Positions 39,109 through 60,422 of a DNA stretch of 64,000 nucleotides are shown in pieces (positions within the stretch are counted from its first letter, which is position 1; every line of letters starts with the position of its first letter). Made by a program: the position numbers and the translations under genes. The stretch is from an uncultured bacterium. Its GTDB lineage: Bacteria > Patescibacteriota > Patescibacteriia > Patescibacteriales > UBA12465. The DNA is taken from the NCBI GenBank assembly GCA_942492765.1, contig OW818634.1:153159-217158 (forward strand). The letters are read 5' to 3'. The notes below the pieces were generated by a model. It ran no database searches and had not been told where the DNA came from. It worked only from the letters and a program-made list of their open reading frames with translations.

Positions 39109-40197
39109 TTACTTCCAAGCAGCGATGATTCCGCCGCCTAAAACGCGCTTCTTATCATAGAAAACGACGCTTTGACCCGGAGTGACGGCCCGCTGCGGCT
39201 TATTAAAAGTAACGAGATAATCCGCCTTATTATTTGGCGCAACCGTGCAATTCACAGCCGCATGGCCATAGCGGATGACCGCACTGCACTTGAAGGCTTT
39301 CTTAGGCGCGCGGCCGGAGAGCCAATTAATTTTCTTGGCGACTAAGCCCTTCTCATATAAGATATTCTCGTTCCAATTCTTAACGACGTAAAGAATATTT
39401 TTCTTATAGTCGAATCTGGCCGCGTAATATGGACCCGTGCCGCCGACTAAACCGCGGCGCTGACCGATCGTATATAGCGGCAAACCCTGATGCTCGCCAA
39501 TCTTCTCATTCGTGCCTAATATCCTAATATCGCCCGGAACTAATTTAAGATATTTCTTCAAAAAATTGTTATGGCTGCCTGACAAAAAACAGATGTCCTG
39601 ACTTTCCGGCTTAGCCGCAACGGTGAGCTTGAACTTAGCCGCTAATTTCCGGACTTGCGGCTTAGTATAATTTCCTAACGGAAACATCAGATGCGCGAGT
39701 TCGTCAGGCGTGAAAGTATACAAGAAATAGGATTGATCCTTATTTTTATCCTTGGCCTTAAAAAGCTGATATGCGCGGCCAACTTTCTTGATATTGAGAT
39801 AGTGCCCTGAAGCGACATAATCAAAGCCGAGCGCGCGAGCATGCTTCAGTAATAAGCCGAGCTTAATCCGCTTATTGCAGACAACGCAAGGATTCGGCGT
39901 CCGGCCGGCCCCATATTCTTTTAAAAAATTATCTACGACCGCCTTCTTAAAAGGCTCTGAAAAATTAAAAGTATAAAGCGGGATGCCGATCTTATTCGCG
40001 ACCACCTTAGCGTCCAAGAGAGACTCGAGCGAGCAGCAACGATTCTCAGCTCCCGGCCCCATGGTCTCATCTTTCCAGAAATGCAAAAAGACGCCAGCGA
40101 CATCATATCCCTGGTTCTTCAAGAGCTGAGCCGCCACGCTGGAATCGACTCCGCCAGACATGGCGACGAGAATTTTTTTCTTACTTTTTACTTTCAT
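39109..40197 (-). CDS. mnmA: tRNA 2-thiouridine(34) synthase
   Basis: PP-loop ILVAMSGGVDSSVAA, catalytic Cys region (NPCVVCNKRIK, DQSYFL), full length. Confidence 0.93.
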   Translation of the reverse strand: MKVKSKKKILVAMSGGVDSSVAAQLLKNQGYDVAGVFLHFWKDETMGPGAENRCCSLESLLDAKVVANKIGIPLYTFNFSEPFKKAVVDNFLKEYGAGRTPNPCVVCNKRIKLGLLLKHARALGFDYVASGHYLNIKKVGRAYQLFKAKDKNKDQSYFLYTFTPDELAHLMFPLGNYTKPQVRKLAAKFKLTVAAKPESQDICFLSGSHNNFLKKYLKLVPGDIRILGTNEKIGEHQGLPLYTIGQRRGLVGGTGPYYAARFDYKKNILYVVKNWNENILYEKGLVAKKINWLSGRAPKKAFKCSAVIRYGHAAVNCTVAPNNKADYLVTFNKPQRAVTPGQSVVFYDKKRVLGGGIIAAWK

Positions 40198-41338
40198 GCA
40201 ATTCTTTAAATAATGCTAAATACTCGACAGCGGTTTTATTCCAAGAGAATATCTTAGCCCGCTCATAACCGGAATCTACTAGGCGGGCGCGTAATCCTTT
40301 ATCAGTCAAAATCATTTTCATTGCCTCGGCGAGCTCTTCAGATTTCTCCGGATTAATCATAATAGCGGCCTCGGCCACTATTTCAGGCAAACTGGAAACG
40401 TTAGAACAGACGACTGGCGCGCCATAAGTCATCGCCTCTAAAGGCGGGAAACCAAAACCTTCGTAATATGAAGGATAGGCAAAAACGGCTGCTTTGGAAT
40501 ATAATATTTCTTTTTCTTCTTGGCTGATATAGCCGAGGAACTTGATTTGATCCTTATAAGGAGAAGCTTGCCAATCGCTATAAATCTGGGCATCTTTCCA
40601 GCCCGGAGCACCAGCTAAGACTAGATCGATATTCTCGCCTCCGCGGCGCAGCTCATCATAAGCTTTGATCAGGCCGCTGATATTCTTACGTGGTTCGATA
40701 TTGCCGACGTAAAGGATAAACGGGCCGCTGACGCCCAGCTTATCCAAACAAGTTTTAGCCTTCTCTTCCGGCCAGGCTTTCTTAACAAGGTTGTTGCCAG
40801 AATAAATCACTCTGATCTTCGCAGCGTCAATGCCAGCCAGTTCAATAATATCATTCTTCGTATTCTCCGAAACCGCGATGATCATATCTGCTTCCTTCAT
40901 TATCTTCTTGACGCCGAGGGCTTTATGCCAAAAATTCTTGCGGCCGCTAAAAAATTGCGGATAGCGCAAGAAGGAGAGGTCATGGACCGTAATGACTTTC
41001 TTTAGCCCGGATTCCGAACCACTCAGGCTCGTGAAATTAAAATGCGGCGACCAGAAAACATCGACGCCGCCTAAAATCTGATCCAGGCGCGGATAACCGA
41101 AAACTTTCTGTAAGCAATAATTAAAGATCTTATTCGGATAATGCAGGCCGATAACCTGGGAATTAGGGCCGTTCCAGCTATCTAAGCGTCCGCCCAAATC
41201 ATGATAAGAATTATAAAAAAGCTTATATTCGCTAGTCCTATCCTGAGCCAATAAAGCCGATAATAAATTAGCGGTATATTCTGATATGCCGCTATAATGC
41301 TTATCCATTAGAACTCTGATATCTGCTCCGATTTTCAT
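40181..41338 (-). CDS. glycosyltransferase family 4 (GT-B)
   Basis: EX7E region YYEGFGFPPLEAMTYGAPVV. It overlaps mnmA by 17 nt. Confidence 0.85.
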   Translation of the reverse strand: MKIGADIRVLMDKHYSGISEYTANLLSALLAQDRTSEYKLFYNSYHDLGGRLDSWNGPNSQVIGLHYPNKIFNYCLQKVFGYPRLDQILGGVDVFWSPHFNFTSLSGSESGLKKVITVHDLSFLRYPQFFSGRKNFWHKALGVKKIMKEADMIIAVSENTKNDIIELAGIDAAKIRVIYSGNNLVKKAWPEEKAKTCLDKLGVSGPFILYVGNIEPRKNISGLIKAYDELRRGGENIDLVLAGAPGWKDAQIYSDWQASPYKDQIKFLGYISQEEKEILYSKAAVFAYPSYYEGFGFPPLEAMTYGAPVVCSNVSSLPEIVAEAAIMINPEKSEELAEAMKMILTDKGLRARLVDSGYERAKIFSWNKTAVEYLALFKELHESKK

Positions 41339-41362
41339 AATAATTTGCTGATATTTATGCCC

Positions 41363-41391
41363 TTGACAACTACCTGACCAAGAACTAATAT
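41363..41391 (+). promoter_or_regulatory. near-consensus sigma70 promoter driving the plus-strand ncRNA
   Basis: TTGACA (41363-41368), exactly 17 nt spacer, TAATAT (41386-41391). No plus-strand CDS follows. Confidence 0.6.
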
Positions 41392-41397
41392 AAGGCC

Positions 41398-41678
41398 AAG
41401 GCTTGATTAAGAAGAGTTAACATCAAAACCATTCTGTAAGCGGTTCACGAATCGCAAAGATATTAAACCTGGGTGTTATAACCTATTACTAATCAAGTCG
41501 CGACATGATTTTGAGGTCGGCACGTTAAAGAAAAAAATTCCTTTGTCTCTTGCCCGCCCGCCAGTCATAAGCATATGACCGCCTAAAGCGAAGCAAGGAT
41601 GGGGACGCCATACTAATCAGGTGCCGCAACCAATATCGAATCATGTCCGGGATAAGCAACAAGCTTATCCCTTTTTTT
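41398..41678 (+). ncRNA. candidate structured ncRNA of unknown class (about 280 nt)
   Basis: Bounded by the promoter above and an intrinsic terminator (GGGATAAGC-aacaa-GCTTATCCC + T7, 41649-41678). Long-range helices: 41400-41409 with 41490-41499, and 41502-41510 with 41639-41647, extended by 41515-41523 with 41621-41631. Internal hairpins GCGGTT-CACG-AATCGC and GTCATA-AGCA-TATGAC. The G-U pairs are compatible only with the plus strand. Confidence 0.5.
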
Positions 41679-42792
41679 ATTTTTCAGACTTACGCGCCGC
41701 GATAAACTCATTCATCTGGCGCTTAAAATTATCTACGGAAAATTGCTCGGCATGTGCGCGGATTGCTTTCGGATCATAAGCCCCTGATTTAAAGTCCCTG
41801 ATTACCGCTTCTAACCCTGCCGCAGTCTGGATATCAAAGAAGGCTCCGGTCTTCCCTTCTACAATTGTTTCGGTCGCTCCGCCCTTGCGATAAGCTATGA
41901 CCGGCCGACCGCTAGCCATGGATTCGACCGCCGTGATGCCGAAATCTTCTTCTTGCGGATTAATGAAGGCCTCGGCTCCTTGATAAAGGCGAGCTTTTTC
42001 TTCTTCGGTCACTCGGCCTAAGAATTCAATATTATTACTATCTCCAGCCAGGCTCTTCAATCGTTTCATATCCACGCCGTCGCCGAATATCTTAAGCTTA
42101 TAATCTTTACCCAGACTTTTAAAAGCTTCGACAACAATATCGATGCGCTTATACGGCGCTAAGCGGCAGCCGGCCAAGAAATATCTCTCGCTCTGCGCTT
42201 TGCCGGATAGATCAACAACAGAAAATTTCTCTGTTTCTACCGGCGGATAAATAACGACGGATTCACGGCGATAATATTTCATGATGCGTTTCTGGACAGT
42301 GACGGAATTAGCTATGAAAAAATCAACCCTATCGGCAGCGGCGCGATCCCAGAGACGGATGCGGCTGATGACGAGAGAAATGATCTTCTTGAACCATTTA
42401 TTATATTTAAGCTCATTCAGATACTCGTGAGTATCGCTCCAGAGATAGCGGGTCGGAGTGTGGCAATAGCAGATATGCAGGCAATCCGGCTTAGTGATGA
42501 CGCCCTTAGCAAAAGAGCTGGTATCGGAAATAACCAAGTCGTATTCCCCTAAATCAAAAAATTCCACGGCAATCGGCATGAAAGTCAGATACCATTGATA
42601 ATGCTTGACGCCGCCAGGCAATTTCTGAATGATGGAAGCCGCGACTTGGCGGCCGGCATAGCGGTCGATATTCTTCTTCTCATAAAGAAGCGTATATATC
42701 GGCGCGTCTTGGAACATATCGGCCAAGACTTGCAGGACCTTTTCGGCGCCGCCGTCTTGGGCGAGATGATCATGAATGAGAGCGGTTTTCAT
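41677..42792 (-). CDS. glycosyltransferase family 4 (GT-B)
   Basis: The start at MKTALIHDHLAQDGGAEKVL (42792) sits 5 nt after the upstream stop. EX7E-like region EDFGITAVESMASGRPVIA. Confidence 0.85.
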   Translation of the reverse strand: MKTALIHDHLAQDGGAEKVLQVLADMFQDAPIYTLLYEKKNIDRYAGRQVAASIIQKLPGGVKHYQWYLTFMPIAVEFFDLGEYDLVISDTSSFAKGVITKPDCLHICYCHTPTRYLWSDTHEYLNELKYNKWFKKIISLVISRIRLWDRAAADRVDFFIANSVTVQKRIMKYYRRESVVIYPPVETEKFSVVDLSGKAQSERYFLAGCRLAPYKRIDIVVEAFKSLGKDYKLKIFGDGVDMKRLKSLAGDSNNIEFLGRVTEEEKARLYQGAEAFINPQEEDFGITAVESMASGRPVIAYRKGGATETIVEGKTGAFFDIQTAAGLEAVIRDFKSGAYDPKAIRAHAEQFSVDNFKRQMNEFIAARKSEK

Positions 42793-42797
42793 GAGAT

Positions 42798-44213
42798 TTA
42801 TTCCGCTTCGCGATGCTTGAGCACGGCAAAGGGCGTTTTTAATAGGATAGAGATATCGAGTAGCATGGTCCAATTCTCGATATAGTAAATATCGAGCTTC
42901 GCCTCCTCTTCAAATAATAAATCGCTGCGGCCGGATACTTGCGCTAAGCCGGTAATGCCGGGCTTGATGGTCAAAGTCTTGCGATGATAATTCTCATACT
43001 TAGCGACTTCTTCCGGCAAGTGCGGGCGCGGTCCGACTAGGCTCATGCGGCCGATAAAGACTAGGAATAGCTCCGGCAGCTCGTCTATGGACCAGCGGCG
43101 GATGACCTTGCCGACACGGGTGATGCGCGGATCATCCTTGATCTTGACCATCGGGCCGTCGGTACGGATATTCCTATCAGCTAACTCGTTATAGCGCATG
43201 CTATCAGAATTAGGGATCATGGAACGGAACTTGAAATATTTGAACGGGGCGCCGCCTTCGCCGACGCGAGTCACGGGTTGGCCGTCATCGCGGCGCGAAA
43301 AGAAGATCGGTCCGCGAGAATCGAGCTTGATAGCCAGCATGGTTATCAGGATGATCGGAGACAGTATGATTATCAGGATAGAAGAAACGATGATATCAAA
43401 ACCGCGCTTCAGGATGCGGCCCCAGCCTTCTAGCGTCGTCCGCTTAACTTCGACGACCGGGATGCCGATGATCTCGGCGACTTCGGTCCTGAGAACCTTC
43501 ACTTCTAATAAATCGGCGACGTATTTGAAAGTCAGATGATTGTCGTTAGCAAAATCATAAAGGCGCAGGGTCTCCACTTTGCTCAGATTAGGATCGCTTT
43601 GGATGATCTCATCGACTTCCCTATCCTTGATGAACTCGGATAATTCCTGGACGGTTTCCAGAGAAAAATCACGGACGCGCTTGACGACCTCGAAGCCGGA
43701 CTTCTTGTTGCTAGAAAATTCTGCCATGAGATTGTCAGTCGTCTTGGAATTGCCGACGAGGATGACTTTATGGACGCCGATGCCTAAGATATATAAGCGG
43801 CGCTGGATAAAGCGGATGATGATATGGGCTAAGCTGATATAGACGACCGCAAAAAGCCAGCCGGCTAAAACGATAAAACGCGAATCAAATAATTCGCGCT
43901 GAAAGAAAATCATGACGGCGATGAGCGCCAAGCCGGTCGAACAAGCGAAAAATATCTTACGCAGCTCTTGAGCTAATTGGCGCGCGCCTCTGATCTGATA
44001 TAGGCCGGCGATGACAAAGATGACGGTCCACAAGACCGCGATAAGCGCGACCGAACGGAAATATTGCGGAAAAGGCAGATTGAAGATGACCGGACGAATA
44101 TTAGCCGACCATTCAGAAAATCTTAAATAGTAGGCTGACACTCCGGCAAGCAAGACCATGACAAAATCCACCGGAATGAAGAGCACGGAAAAGAATGACT
44201 CGATTTTTTTCAT
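42798..44213 (-). CDS. polyprenyl-phosphate glycosyl-1-phosphate transferase (bacterial sugar transferase, WbaP-like)
   Basis: Five N-terminal TM helices and a C-terminal catalytic domain with SLVGPRPHLPEEV...KPGITGLAQVSGRSDL. Confidence 0.9.
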   Translation of the reverse strand: MKKIESFFSVLFIPVDFVMVLLAGVSAYYLRFSEWSANIRPVIFNLPFPQYFRSVALIAVLWTVIFVIAGLYQIRGARQLAQELRKIFFACSTGLALIAVMIFFQRELFDSRFIVLAGWLFAVVYISLAHIIIRFIQRRLYILGIGVHKVILVGNSKTTDNLMAEFSSNKKSGFEVVKRVRDFSLETVQELSEFIKDREVDEIIQSDPNLSKVETLRLYDFANDNHLTFKYVADLLEVKVLRTEVAEIIGIPVVEVKRTTLEGWGRILKRGFDIIVSSILIIILSPIILITMLAIKLDSRGPIFFSRRDDGQPVTRVGEGGAPFKYFKFRSMIPNSDSMRYNELADRNIRTDGPMVKIKDDPRITRVGKVIRRWSIDELPELFLVFIGRMSLVGPRPHLPEEVAKYENYHRKTLTIKPGITGLAQVSGRSDLLFEEEAKLDIYYIENWTMLLDISILLKTPFAVLKHREAE

Positions 44214-44236: not shown

Positions 44237-44617
44237 GTTATTAGAGCAGCCGTAAGCCGGATTCTGTTCTAGCGATCATTTATCTAGGCCGGCCATTGCT
44301 GACAGGCTCAAGCGAGCTACTTTTTCTAACCCGCGAACGGATTAGTTTGCTCTTGCTTCTGATAGGGTTTACCACGGCATCTCCGTCGCCGGAGGCCGAA
44401 ACCGGTAGCCCCGAAGGACATCCAGCCACTTTTCACCTTTGATTCTGTCAAATAAATTCCAGAATTAGTATAGTCTCTGTGGCACTTTCCCTAATCTGCC
44501 TTGCGGCAGACCGGTGGGCGTTACCCACTATCATATTTGCTTATAAATAAACAAATTGCGAAGTCCGGACTTTCCTCTCTATTAAAAATAGAGCAATCGC
44601 CCGCTTACTCTAATAAC
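44237..44617 (-). ncRNA. rnpB: RNase P RNA, bacterial type A
   Basis: Minus strand: P1 GTTATTAGAG pairs with the 3' CTCTAATAAC. P3 hairpin CTCTATT-TTTA-ATAGAG. P4 GAGGAAAGTCCGGAC. GTGCCACAGAGA. GCTTGAGCC...GGCCTAGATAAATGA...ACAGAATCCGGCTTAC matches the universally conserved 3' core. Confidence 0.93.
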
Positions 44618-44652: not shown

Positions 44653-44680
44653 GAGAAAGGCCACCCGAAGGTGGCCTTTT
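44642..44680 (-). terminator. rho-independent terminator of the 1294-aa gene
   Basis: Stem AGGCCACC/GGTGGCCT (44658-44665 / 44670-44677), directly after the stop at 44681, followed on the minus strand by TTTCTCTTGCTTTTTTT. Confidence 0.7.
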
Positions 44681-47600
44681 TTATTTATTATTAGCATAAA
44701 TCTCTTTTACTTGACTTGGGGTCAAAGCGCCCTGCCAAAGACTTAGATCATCGATTTCCGTTTCTGACCCGCTAGTCGTTATCTCAATTCCCTTGATTTT
44801 GTCGCTTTCATGTATCCAGATTAAGGAAGAACTAGCTTTCTCGATCCCATCGACATAGAAGCTCAATTTATAACGATAAGAGTCATAGACGTAGGTCAGA
44901 TAATGCCAATCGCTCCCTCCCGGTATCGCCGTGTTCAATCCCTCGGCTAAAATTCCGTAATTGTTATTAAACCAATAATCAAGCCGAAAATTATCAGGCA
45001 AGATTGCCAATAATTTCTTATCATTATTCACGCCGCCGGTAAGATATAGGCCGGTTTCACCATTATAGTCATCGGGGATATCTCGCCACCAGAAAGCCAT
45101 GGACAGATCTTTCGTGGCCGGAAAATCAGTTAAAGCGGCGGAATGTATGCGTCCAGGATCGACTTTGATAGCATAATTATTATGGCTTCGTCCGACCCAG
45201 GCATCAGCAGCCAGATCAAGCGCGACTCCGCCGATGCTGTCTAAAGAAGTTCGGCCGGTACCTTCTCCAAAGCTCCAAAAATTCACTAATTCCGGAGCTG
45301 TTTGCGCCTCGCGTTCCGGCATCGGACTATAGGGCGCATCAGCTTCATAATCGGCTCGTATCTCTGCGGCTGTCAGCGGCCGATGCCATAAGGCTAATTC
45401 ATCGAAGAGAACGGCGACGCTCTCGCTCTTGATATCCAGATTAGTCATTGTCGGCAAAGGCAGGACGCAAGCCTCTCGCGCTACTCTAGCGCTATCGATA
45501 TAGACTTCCCAATAATCCTCCTCGCGATTTATCACTAAAGTTAATTTATGCCATTCATAATCGCCGGGGATGCCTTGATAATATCGGAATTTGGAATTAG
45601 GCAAACCTTCTATCTCTAGCATGCTGGCATCTGTCCTGATAGAAAATTTTTCTCCGGCTGAATTCGAAAGTTCTGTCTTGATGCTCGGCGTATCCTGGGA
45701 TTTCTTATAATAAAAGCTCAGAGAAAAGCCGTTATTCATATTTATTGCCGGATTAAGCGCGATATTCAACGGCCCGTGATAATAGCCGAGCTGGCGCGCG
45801 CAATCCCATTTTCCGACCGCCCAATCTCCCGGCCCATAACATTCATTAAAATGCCAGATATCGGTCAGTCCGGATGACACGGTCGGCGCTGGCGGCACGA
45901 ACAAGCCAGAATCTTCTTCTGGATCAGGAGTCGCGGCTTCGGGATCGTCAGAGACTGCCAGGTTGAAATCAGTAGAATTACTATGAGTATTGGCGATCCG
46001 ATTCAAGATATAGGCATCGATAATTTCCAGAGCCGGTCCATTGCCGCGATAGTATGAAGCGCTGGGACCGAAACCGACTAAGTCGACGATATCCGAATCA
46101 GTGCTGGAACTGATAGCATCCATTCCTAAATACAAGCTATAGCCATCTCCTCCCCAGCTGAATTCCGTTCGGGTCGCGATCGCGTCCGCCTGATTCCGAT
46201 AATAATTATTAGCATCATCGCGAGCTATCAGATAAACATCGTGCGCTTTAATGATAGTGCCGCCGGGATAAAAGCCATCAGTTTCATCGCCGAGGCGCAT
46301 CAATAGACTCGGGTCTTCGGAGGTGACAGCTTTCTCCAAGCGATATCCGGACGCCGCCAAATCAATATCGACATCAGTCGGGTTAAATAATTCTATCCAA
46401 TCATTATTGCCAGTGCCGTATATCCTCTTTATCAGCATCAACCTATTCAAATCCGCTACTGGCGTCGAGGTCGCAATTTCTGGAGTCGAGGTTGCCGCTT
46501 CTGGCGTAGAAGTAGCGGTCGAGCCGTTATCATTTTCGGGGTTCGAGGCGATAGACGGGTCATCGCTTATGACTAGATTAAAATCTATCGCATTATCATT
46601 TGATGAGCTGGCGCGCCTTAAAATATAGTTATCCTTGATTTCTATTGCTGGGCCGCTGCCAAGGAAATAAGTCGCATCTTCTCCGAAACCGACAGCATCA
46701 ACGACATCCGGATCAGTGCTAGAACTTATAGCTCCTGTGCCCAAATACATAGTATAGCCGGAACCCGTCCAATTAAATCCTTCCCGATAAACCAGGGCAT
46801 CGGCTTTCTGCTTATAATAATCGTTAGCGCCGCCATTGACGATCAGATAAGTATCATGCGCTTTAATCACGGTTCCGCCCGGATAAGCGCCATCATCAGC
46901 GTCGCCAAGGCGCATCAATAGGCTCGGATCTTCAGCGCTCTTAGTTTTTTCTAACCTATAGCCAGCAGCGGCCAGATCAAAATCATTATCAGTCGTGTTG
47001 ATTATTTCTACCCAATCATTATTACCAGTGCCATAGATCTTATTGATACTCGCCAATTTTGGATAATTGTCAGCCGCCGTATTCGCAGATGTTCCGCCGG
47101 ACGAAGAACCTCCTGATGAAGAACCTCCTGACGAAGAGCTGCCAGAGCTTCCGCTTGAGCTGTGGACCGTGACAGAAGATGCTGTCGCGGCCGCTAGATT
47201 ATAATAGGCTTGATTGACTGATTTATCAGAGCTAACCGCTGCCAATACAGTCGTGCTCGCTTGATCGCTCTTAGACGCGATGACCTTAGTCGTGCTCGCT
47301 TTAGTCGCGCTAACTTTAACTTCCGTAGTCTTGCCAGTGCTGACCTTAAGGCTCGCTTTTCCAGCTTTCACCTCAACGGCCGCCGTCTGGCTAGTTTTTA
47401 CATTGATGCCCAGGCTCTTGGCAGCGCTACTCTTGGCCGAGGCCTTCGCAGTCTTCACGGCCGAGGCCGTCTTAGCCTTAGAAGCTGAGGTCGCCTTCTT
47501 CTTAACGGCTACCGCTTTCTTGGCGCTACTGGCAACCGCTGCTTTCTGAAGATTATCATTGACCAAAGTTATAGACGTTCCAGAATCAGAACCGAATATC

Positions 47601-48565
47601 TTTCCGCTCAAGCTTTGCGCTATCTCCTTAGTCTTGGCAGCAGCCTTAATGGCCGTCTCTTTTATCGTTTTTCCGATAATCTTCAAGGAGGAAACGGGAT
47701 TATTAATCAGGCTCCAGCGGGCCGCTAGAGAGTAAACATTTAACGGCCCATTGATCTCTTCTCGCGAAAATGATGAAAAAATCTCTACGTCCGCAGCAAT
47801 CTTCTCCAGACTGGGCTGGAGAAATTGGGTATAGGGCAAAAAGATATAACGATCGCTTTCATGTTCTAGCCCGACATCATAACCGATCAATTCCGGCGCC
47901 GGGATGACAATATCTTTCCGGCGCGCTATCTTAGAGAATTCCCTGTCCTCAGAAAAACAATCGCCCAAAGAATTCACGACACTCTCGTTGTCAAAACCAT
48001 CCGGCGTAATATCGACGGCATAATAAGCCGGATCATATTCTAAAGCTCCGAGATTATTAGGATTAAAGATATTAGCGCTTTCATATAATTTTTCTGTCAG
48101 ACCGACACAGGTCCATTCCTTATCGCCTGGACCTTTCTGCTTATGAAAATCAAAATCATAACCCAATCTTTTTCCGACTAGGCTCTTAGCGAGCGCGACC
48201 ACGCGCGCTTGCTGGAGAGCGTTGACAGATTTCGGCATGCGCGCGCCTAGGAAAACTTCGCCATCGGCGCGATTAACGAAATACTTGGCCGGATTTTTGA
48301 CTATGCCGCCAGCCATTGCTTCTACGATATAATCTTCGCCGTTTTCCTTGCCGATATAGATGGCGGCATGGCCGGAATAGATATTCTTGATTATCCCCTT
48401 CTCTGAATAGATCAAGGGGTCTTGGCTATAGCCGAACATCTTTCCGTCGCCAGAAGTCCGATAAAGCAAAGTCCCAGGAGGCATCGCCCGGCAGAATCCG
48501 GGAGCTAATAAAAAGCTGCATGTTAAGACCAAGCTAAATAATATTTTTCTATATTTCATAAGCAA
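44681..48565 (-). CDS. giant secreted protein: NlpC/P60-superfamily (YiiX/C92-like permuted papain) domain + Ala/Lys and Ser/Gly linkers + 2 lamin-tail (LTD) domains + 2 LamG/concanavalin-like domains
   Basis: Signal peptide present. GHAAIYIG...VEAMAGGI...WTCVGLTEKLYE gives the H and C context of permuted papain-like amidases. LTD motifs are YGTGNNDWVEIINTTDNDFDLAAAGYRLEK and its duplicate. LamG_3-like ends are LALWHRPLTAAEI and LSLWQGALTPSQVKEIY. Confidence 0.85.
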   Translation of the reverse strand: MLMKYRKILFSLVLTCSFLLAPGFCRAMPPGTLLYRTSGDGKMFGYSQDPLIYSEKGIIKNIYSGHAAIYIGKENGEDYIVEAMAGGIVKNPAKYFVNRADGEVFLGARMPKSVNALQQARVVALAKSLVGKRLGYDFDFHKQKGPGDKEWTCVGLTEKLYESANIFNPNNLGALEYDPAYYAVDITPDGFDNESVVNSLGDCFSEDREFSKIARRKDIVIPAPELIGYDVGLEHESDRYIFLPYTQFLQPSLEKIAADVEIFSSFSREEINGPLNVYSLAARWSLINNPVSSLKIIGKTIKETAIKAAAKTKEIAQSLSGKIFGSDSGTSITLVNDNLQKAAVASSAKKAVAVKKKATSASKAKTASAVKTAKASAKSSAAKSLGINVKTSQTAAVEVKAGKASLKVSTGKTTEVKVSATKASTTKVIASKSDQASTTVLAAVSSDKSVNQAYYNLAAATASSVTVHSSSGSSGSSSSGGSSSGGSSSGGTSANTAADNYPKLASINKIYGTGNNDWVEIINTTDNDFDLAAAGYRLEKTKSAEDPSLLMRLGDADDGAYPGGTVIKAHDTYLIVNGGANDYYKQKADALVYREGFNWTGSGYTMYLGTGAISSSTDPDVVDAVGFGEDATYFLGSGPAIEIKDNYILRRASSSNDNAIDFNLVISDDPSIASNPENDNGSTATSTPEAATSTPEIATSTPVADLNRLMLIKRIYGTGNNDWIELFNPTDVDIDLAASGYRLEKAVTSEDPSLLMRLGDETDGFYPGGTIIKAHDVYLIARDDANNYYRNQADAIATRTEFSWGGDGYSLYLGMDAISSSTDSDIVDLVGFGPSASYYRGNGPALEIIDAYILNRIANTHSNSTDFNLAVSDDPEAATPDPEEDSGLFVPPAPTVSSGLTDIWHFNECYGPGDWAVGKWDCARQLGYYHGPLNIALNPAINMNNGFSLSFYYKKSQDTPSIKTELSNSAGEKFSIRTDASMLEIEGLPNSKFRYYQGIPGDYEWHKLTLVINREEDYWEVYIDSARVAREACVLPLPTMTNLDIKSESVAVLFDELALWHRPLTAAEIRADYEADAPYSPMPEREAQTAPELVNFWSFGEGTGRTSLDSIGGVALDLAADAWVGRSHNNYAIKVDPGRIHSAALTDFPATKDLSMAFWWRDIPDDYNGETGLYLTGGVNNDKKLLAILPDNFRLDYWFNNNYGILAEGLNTAIPGGSDWHYLTYVYDSYRYKLSFYVDGIEKASSSLIWIHESDKIKGIEITTSGSETEIDDLSLWQGALTPSQVKEIYANNK
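45937..47056 (-). repeat. tandem duplication of an approx 168-aa LTD module inside the giant gene
   Basis: Unit 1 is about 46553-47056 and unit 2 about 45937-46440. The protein units align end to end (INKIYGTGNNDW...DFNLVISDDPS vs IKRIYGTGNNDW...DFNLAVSDDPEA) with long identical peptide runs (EDPSLLMRLGD, AISSSTD). Confidence 0.8.
46459..46521 (-). repeat. 21-nt x 3 in-frame tandem repeat (TSTPE[A/I]A)
   Basis: Units at 46459-46479, 46480-46500 and 46501-46521 encode TSTPEAA/TSTPEIA/TSTPVAD in the linker between the two LTD modules. Confidence 0.8.
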
Positions 48566-59701: not shown

Positions 59702-59789
59702 TTTAGATTTTTATAAATGCTAAAAAAGCGTTAAATGATTTTAACAAAAAATAACGGGAACCAATACGAACCCGCCGCTAAGATAATTA

Positions 59790-59821
59790 TTCTATTATGG
59801 CTTTATCCTAGCATAATAGAA
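59790..59821. promoter_or_regulatory. 10-bp perfect inverted repeat upstream of the sigma gene
   Basis: TTCTATTATG (59790-59799), 12 nt, CATAATAGAA (59812-59821). It overlaps a possible minus-strand promoter (TTGCTT-17-TAGGAT). Confidence 0.35.
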
Positions 59822-59899
59822 GCCCAAAAGCAAGAATATGGGTAAGATTTACCTGACGCCAGATACCGTCAGATACTGCTAATACGCACCGGATCACCC

Positions 59900-59928
59900 T
59901 TGACTTTTAGGCAATCATGAATTAAGAT
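59900..59928 (+). promoter_or_regulatory. sigma70-like promoter of the HTH gene
   Basis: TTGACT (59900-59905), 17 nt spacer, TAAGAT (59923-59928). Confidence 0.55.
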
Positions 59929-59935
59929 AAGATGA

Positions 59936-59962
59936 CTTAAGTCTATCTAATCTTGGACTTAA
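59936..59962. promoter_or_regulatory. operator-like site 1 (TTAAGTC-N12-GACTTAA)
   Basis: cttaagtctatctaatcttggacttaa starts at about +1 of the predicted transcript. Its left arm lies in the 10-bp palindrome GACTTAAGTC (59934-59943). Confidence 0.5.
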
Positions 59963-60000
59963 AGATAATATCTAACCTTTTTCTAAATAAACAAGCACTT

Positions 60001-60027
60001 CTTAAGTCTAAGATATTCTGGACTTAA
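60001..60027. promoter_or_regulatory. operator-like site 2 (TTAAGTC-N12-GACTTAA)
   Basis: cttaagtctaagatattctggacttaa is 21/27 identical to site 1 with identical 7-bp inverted arms. It ends 20 nt before the ATG at 60047. Confidence 0.5.
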
Positions 60028-60046
60028 CTGCTGAAGTGACCTAAAA

Positions 60047-60316
60047 ATGGCCGGAGAAATAATCTTCCAAATCAAAAAGGCAAGCTTTCCTATCTGGGTT
60101 TCTGTCTCTGAAGCCGCTTCTTTGGGCGGAGTTCAGGGCAAGACTATCCGCCGCGCTATCAAGACTGACCCCAATCTGCTTTTCCGGATAGTCAAGAATC
60201 GCTATCAGATAGAGTTCGGATCCCTGCTCTCTTTCCTCCACAAGAATACTAAGCTGAACAATAAGCTGAAAGATTTCGGCCTCGGCCAATACGTCGCTGA
60301 ATGGAAGCGCTCATAA
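60047..60316 (+). CDS. small helix-turn-helix DNA-binding protein (excisionase/MerR-like HTH_17 type)
   Basis: WVSVSEAASLGGVQGKTIRRAIKT is a classic HTH_17-type helix-turn-helix. 89 aa. Confidence 0.65.
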   Translation: MAGEIIFQIKKASFPIWVSVSEAASLGGVQGKTIRRAIKTDPNLLFRIVKNRYQIEFGSLLSFLHKNTKLNNKLKDFGLGQYVAEWKRS

Positions 60317-60349
60317 AAAAACATCCCGGATTCCGACGGGATGTTTTTC
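60314..60349. terminator. bidirectional rho-independent terminator
   Basis: Stem ACATCCCG/CGGGATGT (60321-60328 / 60337-60344), A7 upstream and T5 downstream. It lies between the convergent HTH and HU genes. Confidence 0.7.
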
Positions 60350-60422
60350 ATATTCGAGAAACTAAATTTTTTCTCATTCGGCCCCTAAGGGCCCGAACTA
60401 TCTCTAATTACACTTCAACTGA

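Follow-up and report, generated by a model that had tools for sequence, protein, structure and literature searches.

The window analysed here is a stretch of 64,000 nucleotides (nt) from an uncultured member of Patescibacteriota (GenBank assembly GCA_942492765.1, contig OW818634.1, positions 153,159 to 217,158), and all positions below refer to it. Nearly all of its genes lie on the minus strand. Two of them encode family 4 glycosyltransferases: GT_A (40181-41338, -), in which the Pfam domains Glycos_transf_1 and Glyco_transf_4 were recognized, and GT_B (41677-42873, -), also assigned with Pfam. The intergenic spacing between them is 338 nt. This gap very probably contains a genuine RNA gene on the plus strand, antisense to the operon of the two glycosyltransferases. 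The RNA belongs to a previously undescribed family from one subclade of Candidatus Falkowbacteria (Patescibacteria/Candidate Phyla Radiation, CPR).

The RNA gene in the gap

The RNA gene starts with a promoter of the sigma-70 type at 41363-41391 (+), seen in the sequence and in a consensus scan. It consists of the -35 hexamer TTGACA (41363-41368), a spacer of 17 nt, and the -10 hexamer TAATAT (41386-41391). Transcription is predicted to start near A41398 (+). An intrinsic terminator is present at 41649-41678 (+). Its 9-bp stem with five GC pairs, GGGATAAGC/GCTTATCCC (41649-41671), has a 5-nt loop and is followed by seven T residues (41672-41678); in the RNA, the stem is GGGAUAAGC/GCUUAUCCC, followed by U7. 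Both signals had been described in a first-pass annotation of this DNA, with the same coordinates and sequences, and their orientation is conserved in 11 related loci. Read on the minus strand, the terminator hairpin has no trailing U-run. The predicted RNA, with its terminator, is ~281 nt long (41398-41678, +). The RNA gene thus occupies the whole gap, from the start codon of GT_A to the stop codon of GT_B: the -35 hexamer is 24 nt from the GT_A start codon, and the T-run of the terminator overlaps the GT_B stop codon on the opposite strand.

Single matches to promoters and terminators are frequent in this region. The consensus scan of 6 kb revealed 18 promoter-like sites, while 9.8 were expected, and 17 terminator-like sites, while 7.4 were expected. 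The case for an RNA gene therefore rests on comparative evidence. The unit stands above chance because it recurs in 13 further distinct syntenic loci and because its helices covary.

The open reading frames (ORFs) confined to the gap are only mechanical, up to 45 aa, and they have no conserved counterpart in relatives; the gap had been described as free of ORFs in the first-pass annotation. A small protein-coding gene was rejected, as no ORF is conserved and the matches to a 52-aa plus-strand ORF represent the antisense of the GT_B coding region. A riboswitch or cis-regulatory leader on the plus strand was also rejected. There is no plus-strand gene downstream, and the RNA ends at its own terminator.

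The RNA could not be assigned to any known class. At the gathering threshold, none of the 4227 families of Rfam 15 matched the gap, whether that of the window or those of 11 related loci; across the 64-kb window, tRNAs and RNase P were the only Rfam matches. At E <=10, the few matches to the gap of the window, L091, and L087 (related loci are referred to by such numbers) had low scores and were implausible, for example snoRNA and miRNA families of eukaryotes. No Rfam cis-regulatory family matched the gap on either strand. ARAGORN found two tRNAs only in the window, and tmRNA, signal recognition particle (SRP) RNA, and RNase P RNA are absent from the gap according to Rfam. The Rfam/Infernal scan, which the first-pass annotation had proposed as a check of its view that no known class is represented, thus assigned no family. 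A literature search on small or structured RNAs in Patescibacteria, CPR, and Falkowbacteria found nothing relevant.

Fold, modules and compensatory changes

The minimum free energy (MFE) of the plus strand at 41397-41678 is -85.4 kcal/mol, compared with -60.7 +/- 4.9 kcal/mol for 200 dinucleotide-shuffled sequences (z = -5.1), none of which was as stable as the window RNA. This control had also been suggested beforehand. The minus strand of the gap folds nearly equally well (z = -4.4). Because both strands fold similarly well, folding energy alone cannot pick the strand. The plus strand shows 20 G-U/U-G pairs versus 7 A-C/C-A mismatches. This excess, together with the orientation of the promoter and the terminator, indicates that the functional strand is the plus strand, in line with the G-U argument of the first-pass annotation.

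The RNA of the window consists of two domains followed by the terminator. Domain 1 (41398-41499, +) is closed by a helix of 41400-41409 with 41490-41499 in the MFE fold. In L001 and L081, this closing helix persists with 10-12 bp and different sequences of the 3' strand, and it is represented in L090 by a shorter, interrupted duplex. Inside domain 1, a helix element found throughout the family is formed by AACAU (41419-41423) and GUGUU (41473-41477), followed by AUAACC (41478-41483); GGTGTTATAACC fits the pattern of this element with one mismatch. Tetraloop hairpins, as predicted earlier, do appear in the 5' domain of the MFE fold, but the inner hairpins show no conservation, and the domain is better read as a shortened copy of the module called type II below.

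Domain 2 (41500-41648, +), the type I module, is a long rod, matched by the covariance model with 154.7 bits. Its first helix (41502-41511/41638-41647) is continued by GGTCGGCAC/GTGCCGCAACC in the MFE fold. Both this helix with its extension and the closing helix of domain 1 had been proposed before, and both are supported by compensatory changes. The second helix is formed by GGUCGGCAC (41515-41523) and GUGCCGCAACC (41621-41631), with a CA bulge. It is followed by a large internal loop, whose 5' strand (41524-41539) is A-rich and whose 3' strand (41610-41620) is AUACUAAUCAG. Beyond this loop, two helices (41540-41556/41589-41609) lead to a conserved apical motif (41557-41588, +), which was recognized in alignments. 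The apical motif is composed of CCCGCC (41557-41562), the hairpin GUCAUA-AGCA-UAUGAC (41564-41579), and CGCCUAAAG (41580-41588). It includes two small internal loops, in which unpaired C and A residues are near-invariant. CCCGCC and GCCYAAAG are kept in the window, L001, L081, L087, and L090, while the hairpin between them varies in sequence and length. A variant motif, GCCCGC ... UCCUAAAGC, is seen in L091. The invariant residues of the apical motif, mostly unpaired, are the best-conserved part of the RNA. Twister and twister-sister ribozymes, SRP domain IV, and k-turn and UAA/GAN motifs were considered for CCCGCC/GCCYAAAG and GUAAYC and were rejected, as there was no Rfam support and no convincing match.

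Independent MFE folds of the window, L001, L081, L087, and L090 give one common architecture: a 5' domain, a long rod, and a terminator, in that order. The 5' domain is closed by a helix between its AAGRC start and the stretch just before the second domain. It has its full size in the window, L001, and L081, is tiny in L090, and is absent in L087. Plain MAFFT misaligned the flanks of the rod of domain 2 as well as domain 1; a model-guided alignment with helix-by-helix checks was used instead.

The window, L081, and L087 were used to train a covariance model of the rod, R1. This model retrieved two sequences outside the training set, L001 (40.5 bits, E = 2e-6) and L090 (34.1 bits, E = 7e-5), and in a search of 0.77 Mb of syntenic loci all of its best matches were inside the gap. 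The model R2, built from five sequences, additionally found the first module of L091 (E = 0.036) and showed no match at E <=1 in 0.69 Mb of unrelated metagenomic DNA. On the minus strand, R1 and R2 gave 18-21 bits, which is the level expected for the reverse strand of training sequences. The consensus structure of the rod has 43 pairs. Across the five sequences aligned to the model, 24 of the 43 pairs have changes on both sides, versus 6 or fewer in controls whose partners were slid by 1-3 columns. Standard pairs are formed by 92.8% of cells, versus 33-50% with slid partners. The covariation values were reached by 0 of 500 shuffles. The homologue search and covariation analysis, again proposed in the first-pass annotation, thus make a good, though not final, case that the structure is conserved with compensatory changes.

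Reading of the gap sequences of related loci suggests a modular build of the family. The second module, type II, recurs in L082, L091, L247, L002, L001, and L081. Its conserved stretches include CGGACAYYAAAAC, UUCCGGA, AAUCGGGCA, AACGGAAAAAA, and CCGGGUGUCGUAAYC. Both types of modules share a helix of 5'-GRCAY and 5'-GUGYC, with an A-rich run after the 5' strand and (G)UAAYC after the 3' strand. The shared helix covaries: GGCAC/GUGCC, GGCGC/GCGCC, AACAU/GUGUU, and CGACAU/AUGUCG are observed. RNAalifold on six modules also recovers the GRCAY/GUGYC helix. The pattern GGTGYCRYAAYC occurs twice in the window RNA (41472-41483 and 41620-41631) and once elsewhere in the 64 kb.

The number of modules ranges from one to three. 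L087 has only the type I rod and the terminator, and L002 and L247 have only type II. Two modules are present in the window, L001, and L081, and three in L091. No module is universal; the shared helix element is found in nearly all members. Searches of the rest of the window and of the fetched loci with the covariance models revealed no further copies of the 3' module. A third motif, CCGG-loop-CCGGAAGAUG-hairpin-CAUAAAUCUUnnUCAGAA, is located just before the terminator in L082, L088, and L091, and is also listed for the truncated L085 and L086. It has no Rfam match.

Distribution and genomic neighbourhood

Units in the gap between GT_B and GT_A were found in 14 distinct loci, including the window. 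The loci counted were the window, L001, L002, L005, L008, L069, L081, L082, L085/L086, L087, L088, L090, L091, L247, and L248. Both a promoter and a terminator, antisense to the operon, are present in the same gap of the window and of 11 related loci. The TTGACA hexamer is 2-60 nt from the GT_A start codon in these loci. The spacer is 16-17 nt, and the -10 box is of the TAnnAT type, except for one TAAAGT. The RNA body is 173-458 nt long, and the T-run of the terminator abuts the GT_B stop codon. The signals of L247 were taken from reading its sequence. The unit of L085/L086 is cut at the contig end and was left out of this count. For L248, no promoter could be placed, because the GT_A ORF as called runs across that region. 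The terminator stem GGGATAAG..CTTATCCC is common to L001, L002, L081, L087, L090, and L248. In L088 and L089, the stretch from the start codon of GT_A to the -35 hexamer includes a direct duplication of ~30 nt (GGCCCTATTTAAAGCTCT twice).

The primary sequence diverges fast. Among 80 syntenic genome loci, nhmmer aligned only L001 (E = 1e-6) to the gap of the window, and blastn aligned only L081 and L087. Direct sequence search reached the closest relatives only, and thus the family was traced by synteny. The folds of more diverged members are also more stable than shuffled sequences (z = -3.2, -2.5, and -3.0 for L002, L005, and L008, respectively), and the value for L001 is -5.1. A metagenome scan with the terminator pattern GGGATAAG..CTTATCCCYTTTTT gave, among the matches listed, unrelated terminators and none with the RNA body. 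In viral contigs, searches for the terminator pattern and for the core motif produced chance matches only, mostly in coding regions. An AT-rich intergenic look-alike of the core motif, CCCGCCCGTC...GACAGCCTAAAG, was seen in L240 (IMGVR_UViG_3300021963_000087, 2600-2960). It is probably unrelated, as the covariance model gave no match and Rfam gave no credible match there.

About 40 or more loci share the gene order sugar transferase, GT_B, GT_A, and mnmA. In dozens of related loci, the RNase P RNA gene precedes the sugar transferase gene, in the order RNase P RNA, sugar transferase, GT_B, GT_A, and mnmA. The GT_A orthologues, up to 86% identical, come from metagenome-assembled genomes annotated as Candidatus Falkowbacteria or Patescibacteria. 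In most related loci, GT_B and GT_A are directly adjacent or separated by fewer than 50 nt. A gap of about 170-550 nt is present in nearly all loci with a GT_A at least 72% identical to that of the window, and also in two more distant loci, L005 and L008. Such a gap and the unit are absent in P0008 (GT_A 77% identical) and L092 (68%). Because the gap is mostly missing in distant relatives and is patchy in close ones, the unit is, in the loci compared, a lineage-restricted, patchy insertion into a conserved operon. It is not general to the operon, and is limited to one Falkowbacteria subclade.

Other sequences occupy the same gap in some loci. L036 (298-532) contains a small hydrophobic ORF and a terminator, and short AT-rich inverted or tandem repeats are present in L028 (3900-4000), L030 (1810-1957), and L033 (1681-1783). 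The gap of L028 includes three GACGACA units. The GT_B/GT_A junction seems to be insertion-prone in distant relatives.

Several further features of the window were observed. The listed GT_B ORF starts at TTG and shares 76 nt (42798-42873) with the upstream sugar transferase gene. The true start of GT_B is probably further downstream, because alignments with homologues begin only at residues 16-28. The bacterial class A RNase P RNA (44237-44613, -; Rfam, 176 bits) is located just upstream of the sugar transferase gene, and this adjacency is kept in all five related loci whose fetched DNA reaches there. Between the RNase P RNA and the gene for a 1294-aa protein, there is a perfect bidirectional terminator hairpin, GGCCACC..GGTGGCC (44653-44682). 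The 1294-aa protein (44681-48565, -) contains a permuted papain-like amidase domain (Peptidase_C92), Lamin Tail domains, and Laminin_G_3, and is probably a large surface protein. At 59702-60422, a gap of 722 nt among minus-strand genes contains a plus-strand ORF of 89 aa (60047-60316). A promoter-like TTGACT-17-TAAGAT (59900-59928) is present upstream of this ORF, and a hairpin with a T-run (about 60319-60349) follows it.

Possible functions and comparison with known RNAs

It is proposed, with a probability of roughly 0.4, that the main function is that of a stable trans-acting structured RNA, which probably binds protein. The first-pass annotation, whose description is essentially right, had offered a trans-acting RNA and an antisense regulator as its two options. 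The strong promoter, of the housekeeping type, would drive the RNA and the intrinsic terminator would end it. The transcript would fold into rod-like modules, two in the window and one to three in the family, and work as a folded particle. It would most likely bind or sequester a protein. The invariant unpaired nucleotides, the repeated modules, and the strong promoter together suggest such a trans-acting folded RNA. The RNA would also be fully complementary to any read-through mRNA of the operon, and a side effect of the converging transcription should be that the expression of GT_A and mnmA is lowered or uncoupled.

Several points weigh against this proposal. The family is small and fast-evolving, and L002, the closest locus by its flanking proteins, has no 3' module. 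Apart from the promoter, the terminator, and the position, L005, L008, and L069 have little in common. The covariation test used five sequences aligned to the model, and its pair counts are biased towards the structure. The conservation with the longest range is that of the predicted antisense transcription of the gap and not that of the RNA body, which fits a role in cis at least as well. A trans-acting RNA placed antisense inside an operon is also expected to be costly.

Control of the operon by antisense transcription in cis is a less probable main function, and is the foremost of the alternatives. The unit would then lower the expression of GT_A, mnmA, and the genes further downstream, or uncouple it from that of the sugar transferase and GT_B genes, either by transcriptional interference or by cleavage with a double-strand RNase. 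The perfect duplex would be 170-460 bp, and the folded body would serve mainly for stability. Wherever it was found, the unit occupies the same gap in the antisense orientation, with the RNA gene filling the space between the two codons that bound it. The promoter, the terminator, and their orientation persist in L002, L005, L008, and L069 despite bodies that cannot be aligned. The first-pass annotation placed a structured RNA antisense inside the glycosyltransferase operon and saw no minus-strand terminator between the two genes; both observations hold, and the consensus scan detected no terminator-like site on the minus strand of the gap. Its divergent minus-strand promoter, TTGGTC-18-TAAATA, turned out to be weak, and no operon-sense promoter is conserved across loci. 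Such a promoter was rejected as a family feature, since a good one (TTGTCA-16/17-TAAAAT) is found only in L001, L081, and L091. With no minus-strand terminator in the gap and no conserved operon-sense promoter for GT_A, the expression of GT_A and mnmA probably relies on read-through. Read-through would make convergent transcription and an RNA duplex of ~280 bp unavoidable. If it occurs, the downstream half of the operon should be subject to a cis-antisense effect, either as a side effect or as the real function. However, perfect complementarity does not need invariant unpaired CCCGCC, GCCYAAAG, and GUAAYC, or compensatory changes in six helices. Most relatives run the same operon with abutting genes and no unit, and vertical inheritance alone can account for the fixed position.

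A more specific form of the trans-acting proposal is that this modular RNA sequesters a global regulator or RNA polymerase through its repeated helix element and its conserved C-rich loops, as a functional analogue of 6S RNA or CsrB, with its expression also coupled to envelope glycosylation. This idea is speculative and rather unlikely. If it is true, no lineage-specific regulatory ribonucleoprotein RNA would have been described in CPR before this one.

A strictly 6S-like function, in which the 3' module mimics an open promoter and binds the RNA polymerase holoenzyme, is improbable, although some dimensions would suit it. The rod is ~145 nt long and has a large central bubble with flanking duplex arms of roughly the right length; the dimensions and the strand polarity used here are those reportedly expected of 6S RNA. 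The internal loop, ~16 by 7-16 nt, is conserved in five sequences. The 3' strands of the bubble are AU-rich and resemble a -10 box (CUAAU or CAUAAU), and L087 consists of this rod alone and a terminator. No 6S gene was detected in the 64-kb window at the Rfam gathering threshold. On the other hand, RF00013 gave no match even at E <=10 in a cmscan of 41250-41780 and of L087 570-845. The apical loop motif, not the bubble, is most conserved, and most members carry extra modules. L002 and L247 lack the module, and close relatives lack the entire unit at this locus.

It is still less likely that the unit is a decaying remnant, either a pseudogene or the relic of a mobile element, whose signals are fortuitous and which has no function today. 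The patchy distribution, with absence in P0008 and L092, the quick turnover of the body, and the unrelated short inserts or small ORF in the same gap of L036, L028, and L030 would be compatible with decay. The promoter hexamers and the terminators, however, are maintained where GT_A is only 60-86% identical to that of the window, and the helices are preserved by compensatory changes. There are no conserved ORF remnants, and no second copy of the 3' module in the window or the fetched loci.

A functional minus strand, acting as a structured intercistronic leader or a riboswitch-like element for GT_A, is very improbable: it folds well and the gap is probably within the operon transcript, but the G-U pairs, the conservation of the promoter and of the U-tailed terminator of the plus strand in 11 related loci, the lack of an Rfam cis-regulatory family, and the low scores of the models on the minus strand, though these are expected for the reverse of training sequences, all stand against it.

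To our knowledge, regulatory RNA is largely unexplored in Patescibacteria/CPR, and few such RNAs have been described. The family reported here is a new one of a familiar kind, the bacterial small structured RNA. What distinguishes it is its modular build, its antisense placement in a conserved glycan operon, and its phylum of origin. Its importance is limited by its narrow range and fast evolution. A modular RNA family supported by covariation and equipped with a strong promoter would be an entry point to RNA-based regulation in reduced, episymbiotic bacteria, and its position in a conserved surface-glycan operon suggests a testable link to the expression of the cell envelope.

Compared with known systems, the RNA resembles 6S RNA (RF00013, ssrS) as a strongly promoted stand-alone bacterial RNA, with expression here predicted from the promoter. 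Domain 2 is a rod with paired ends and a large central internal loop, and its shape is retained while the sequence changes fast. In contrast to 6S RNA, the window RNA carries an extra 5' domain of 100 nt, and L087 alone is a single rod. Conservation peaks in the apical loop motif, and we know of no motif of this sort in the apical loop of 6S RNAs. The rod is missing in some family members, and the family is confined to a subclade at one locus; at the GT_B/GT_A locus, the unit is absent in most Falkowbacteria relatives.

Sponges of the CsrB/RsmZ type are similar in having their own promoter and terminator, a variable number of repeated units sharing a short element, and a rapid turnover between relatives. 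Their element is GGA in hairpin loops, whereas the element here is the GRCAY/GUGYC helix with A-rich and UAAYC strands, and the units here are large (100-150 nt) and few (one to three). In the sequence and fold of the window RNA there are very few GGA triplets and no GGA loops; the AAGGAUGGGG stretch near 41595-41604 is in a predicted helix strand, not in a hairpin loop.

Cis-encoded antisense RNAs, such as GadY of Escherichia coli and IsrR of Synechocystis, are likewise transcribed opposite an operon and fully complementary to it, as discrete small transcripts, here predicted, that end at an intrinsic terminator. The RNA of the window differs from them in covering only a spacer that exists solely due to the RNA gene. 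It overlaps no ribosome-binding site and no coding sequence except the GT_B stop codon, and its conserved unpaired motifs and covarying helices exceed the needs of antisense pairing. With the orphan structured RNAs of the Weinberg/Breaker type, it shares covariation, a promoter and a terminator, and a narrow taxonomic range. The analogies with 6S RNA, CsrB/RsmZ, and cis-antisense RNAs are thus functional rather than familial.

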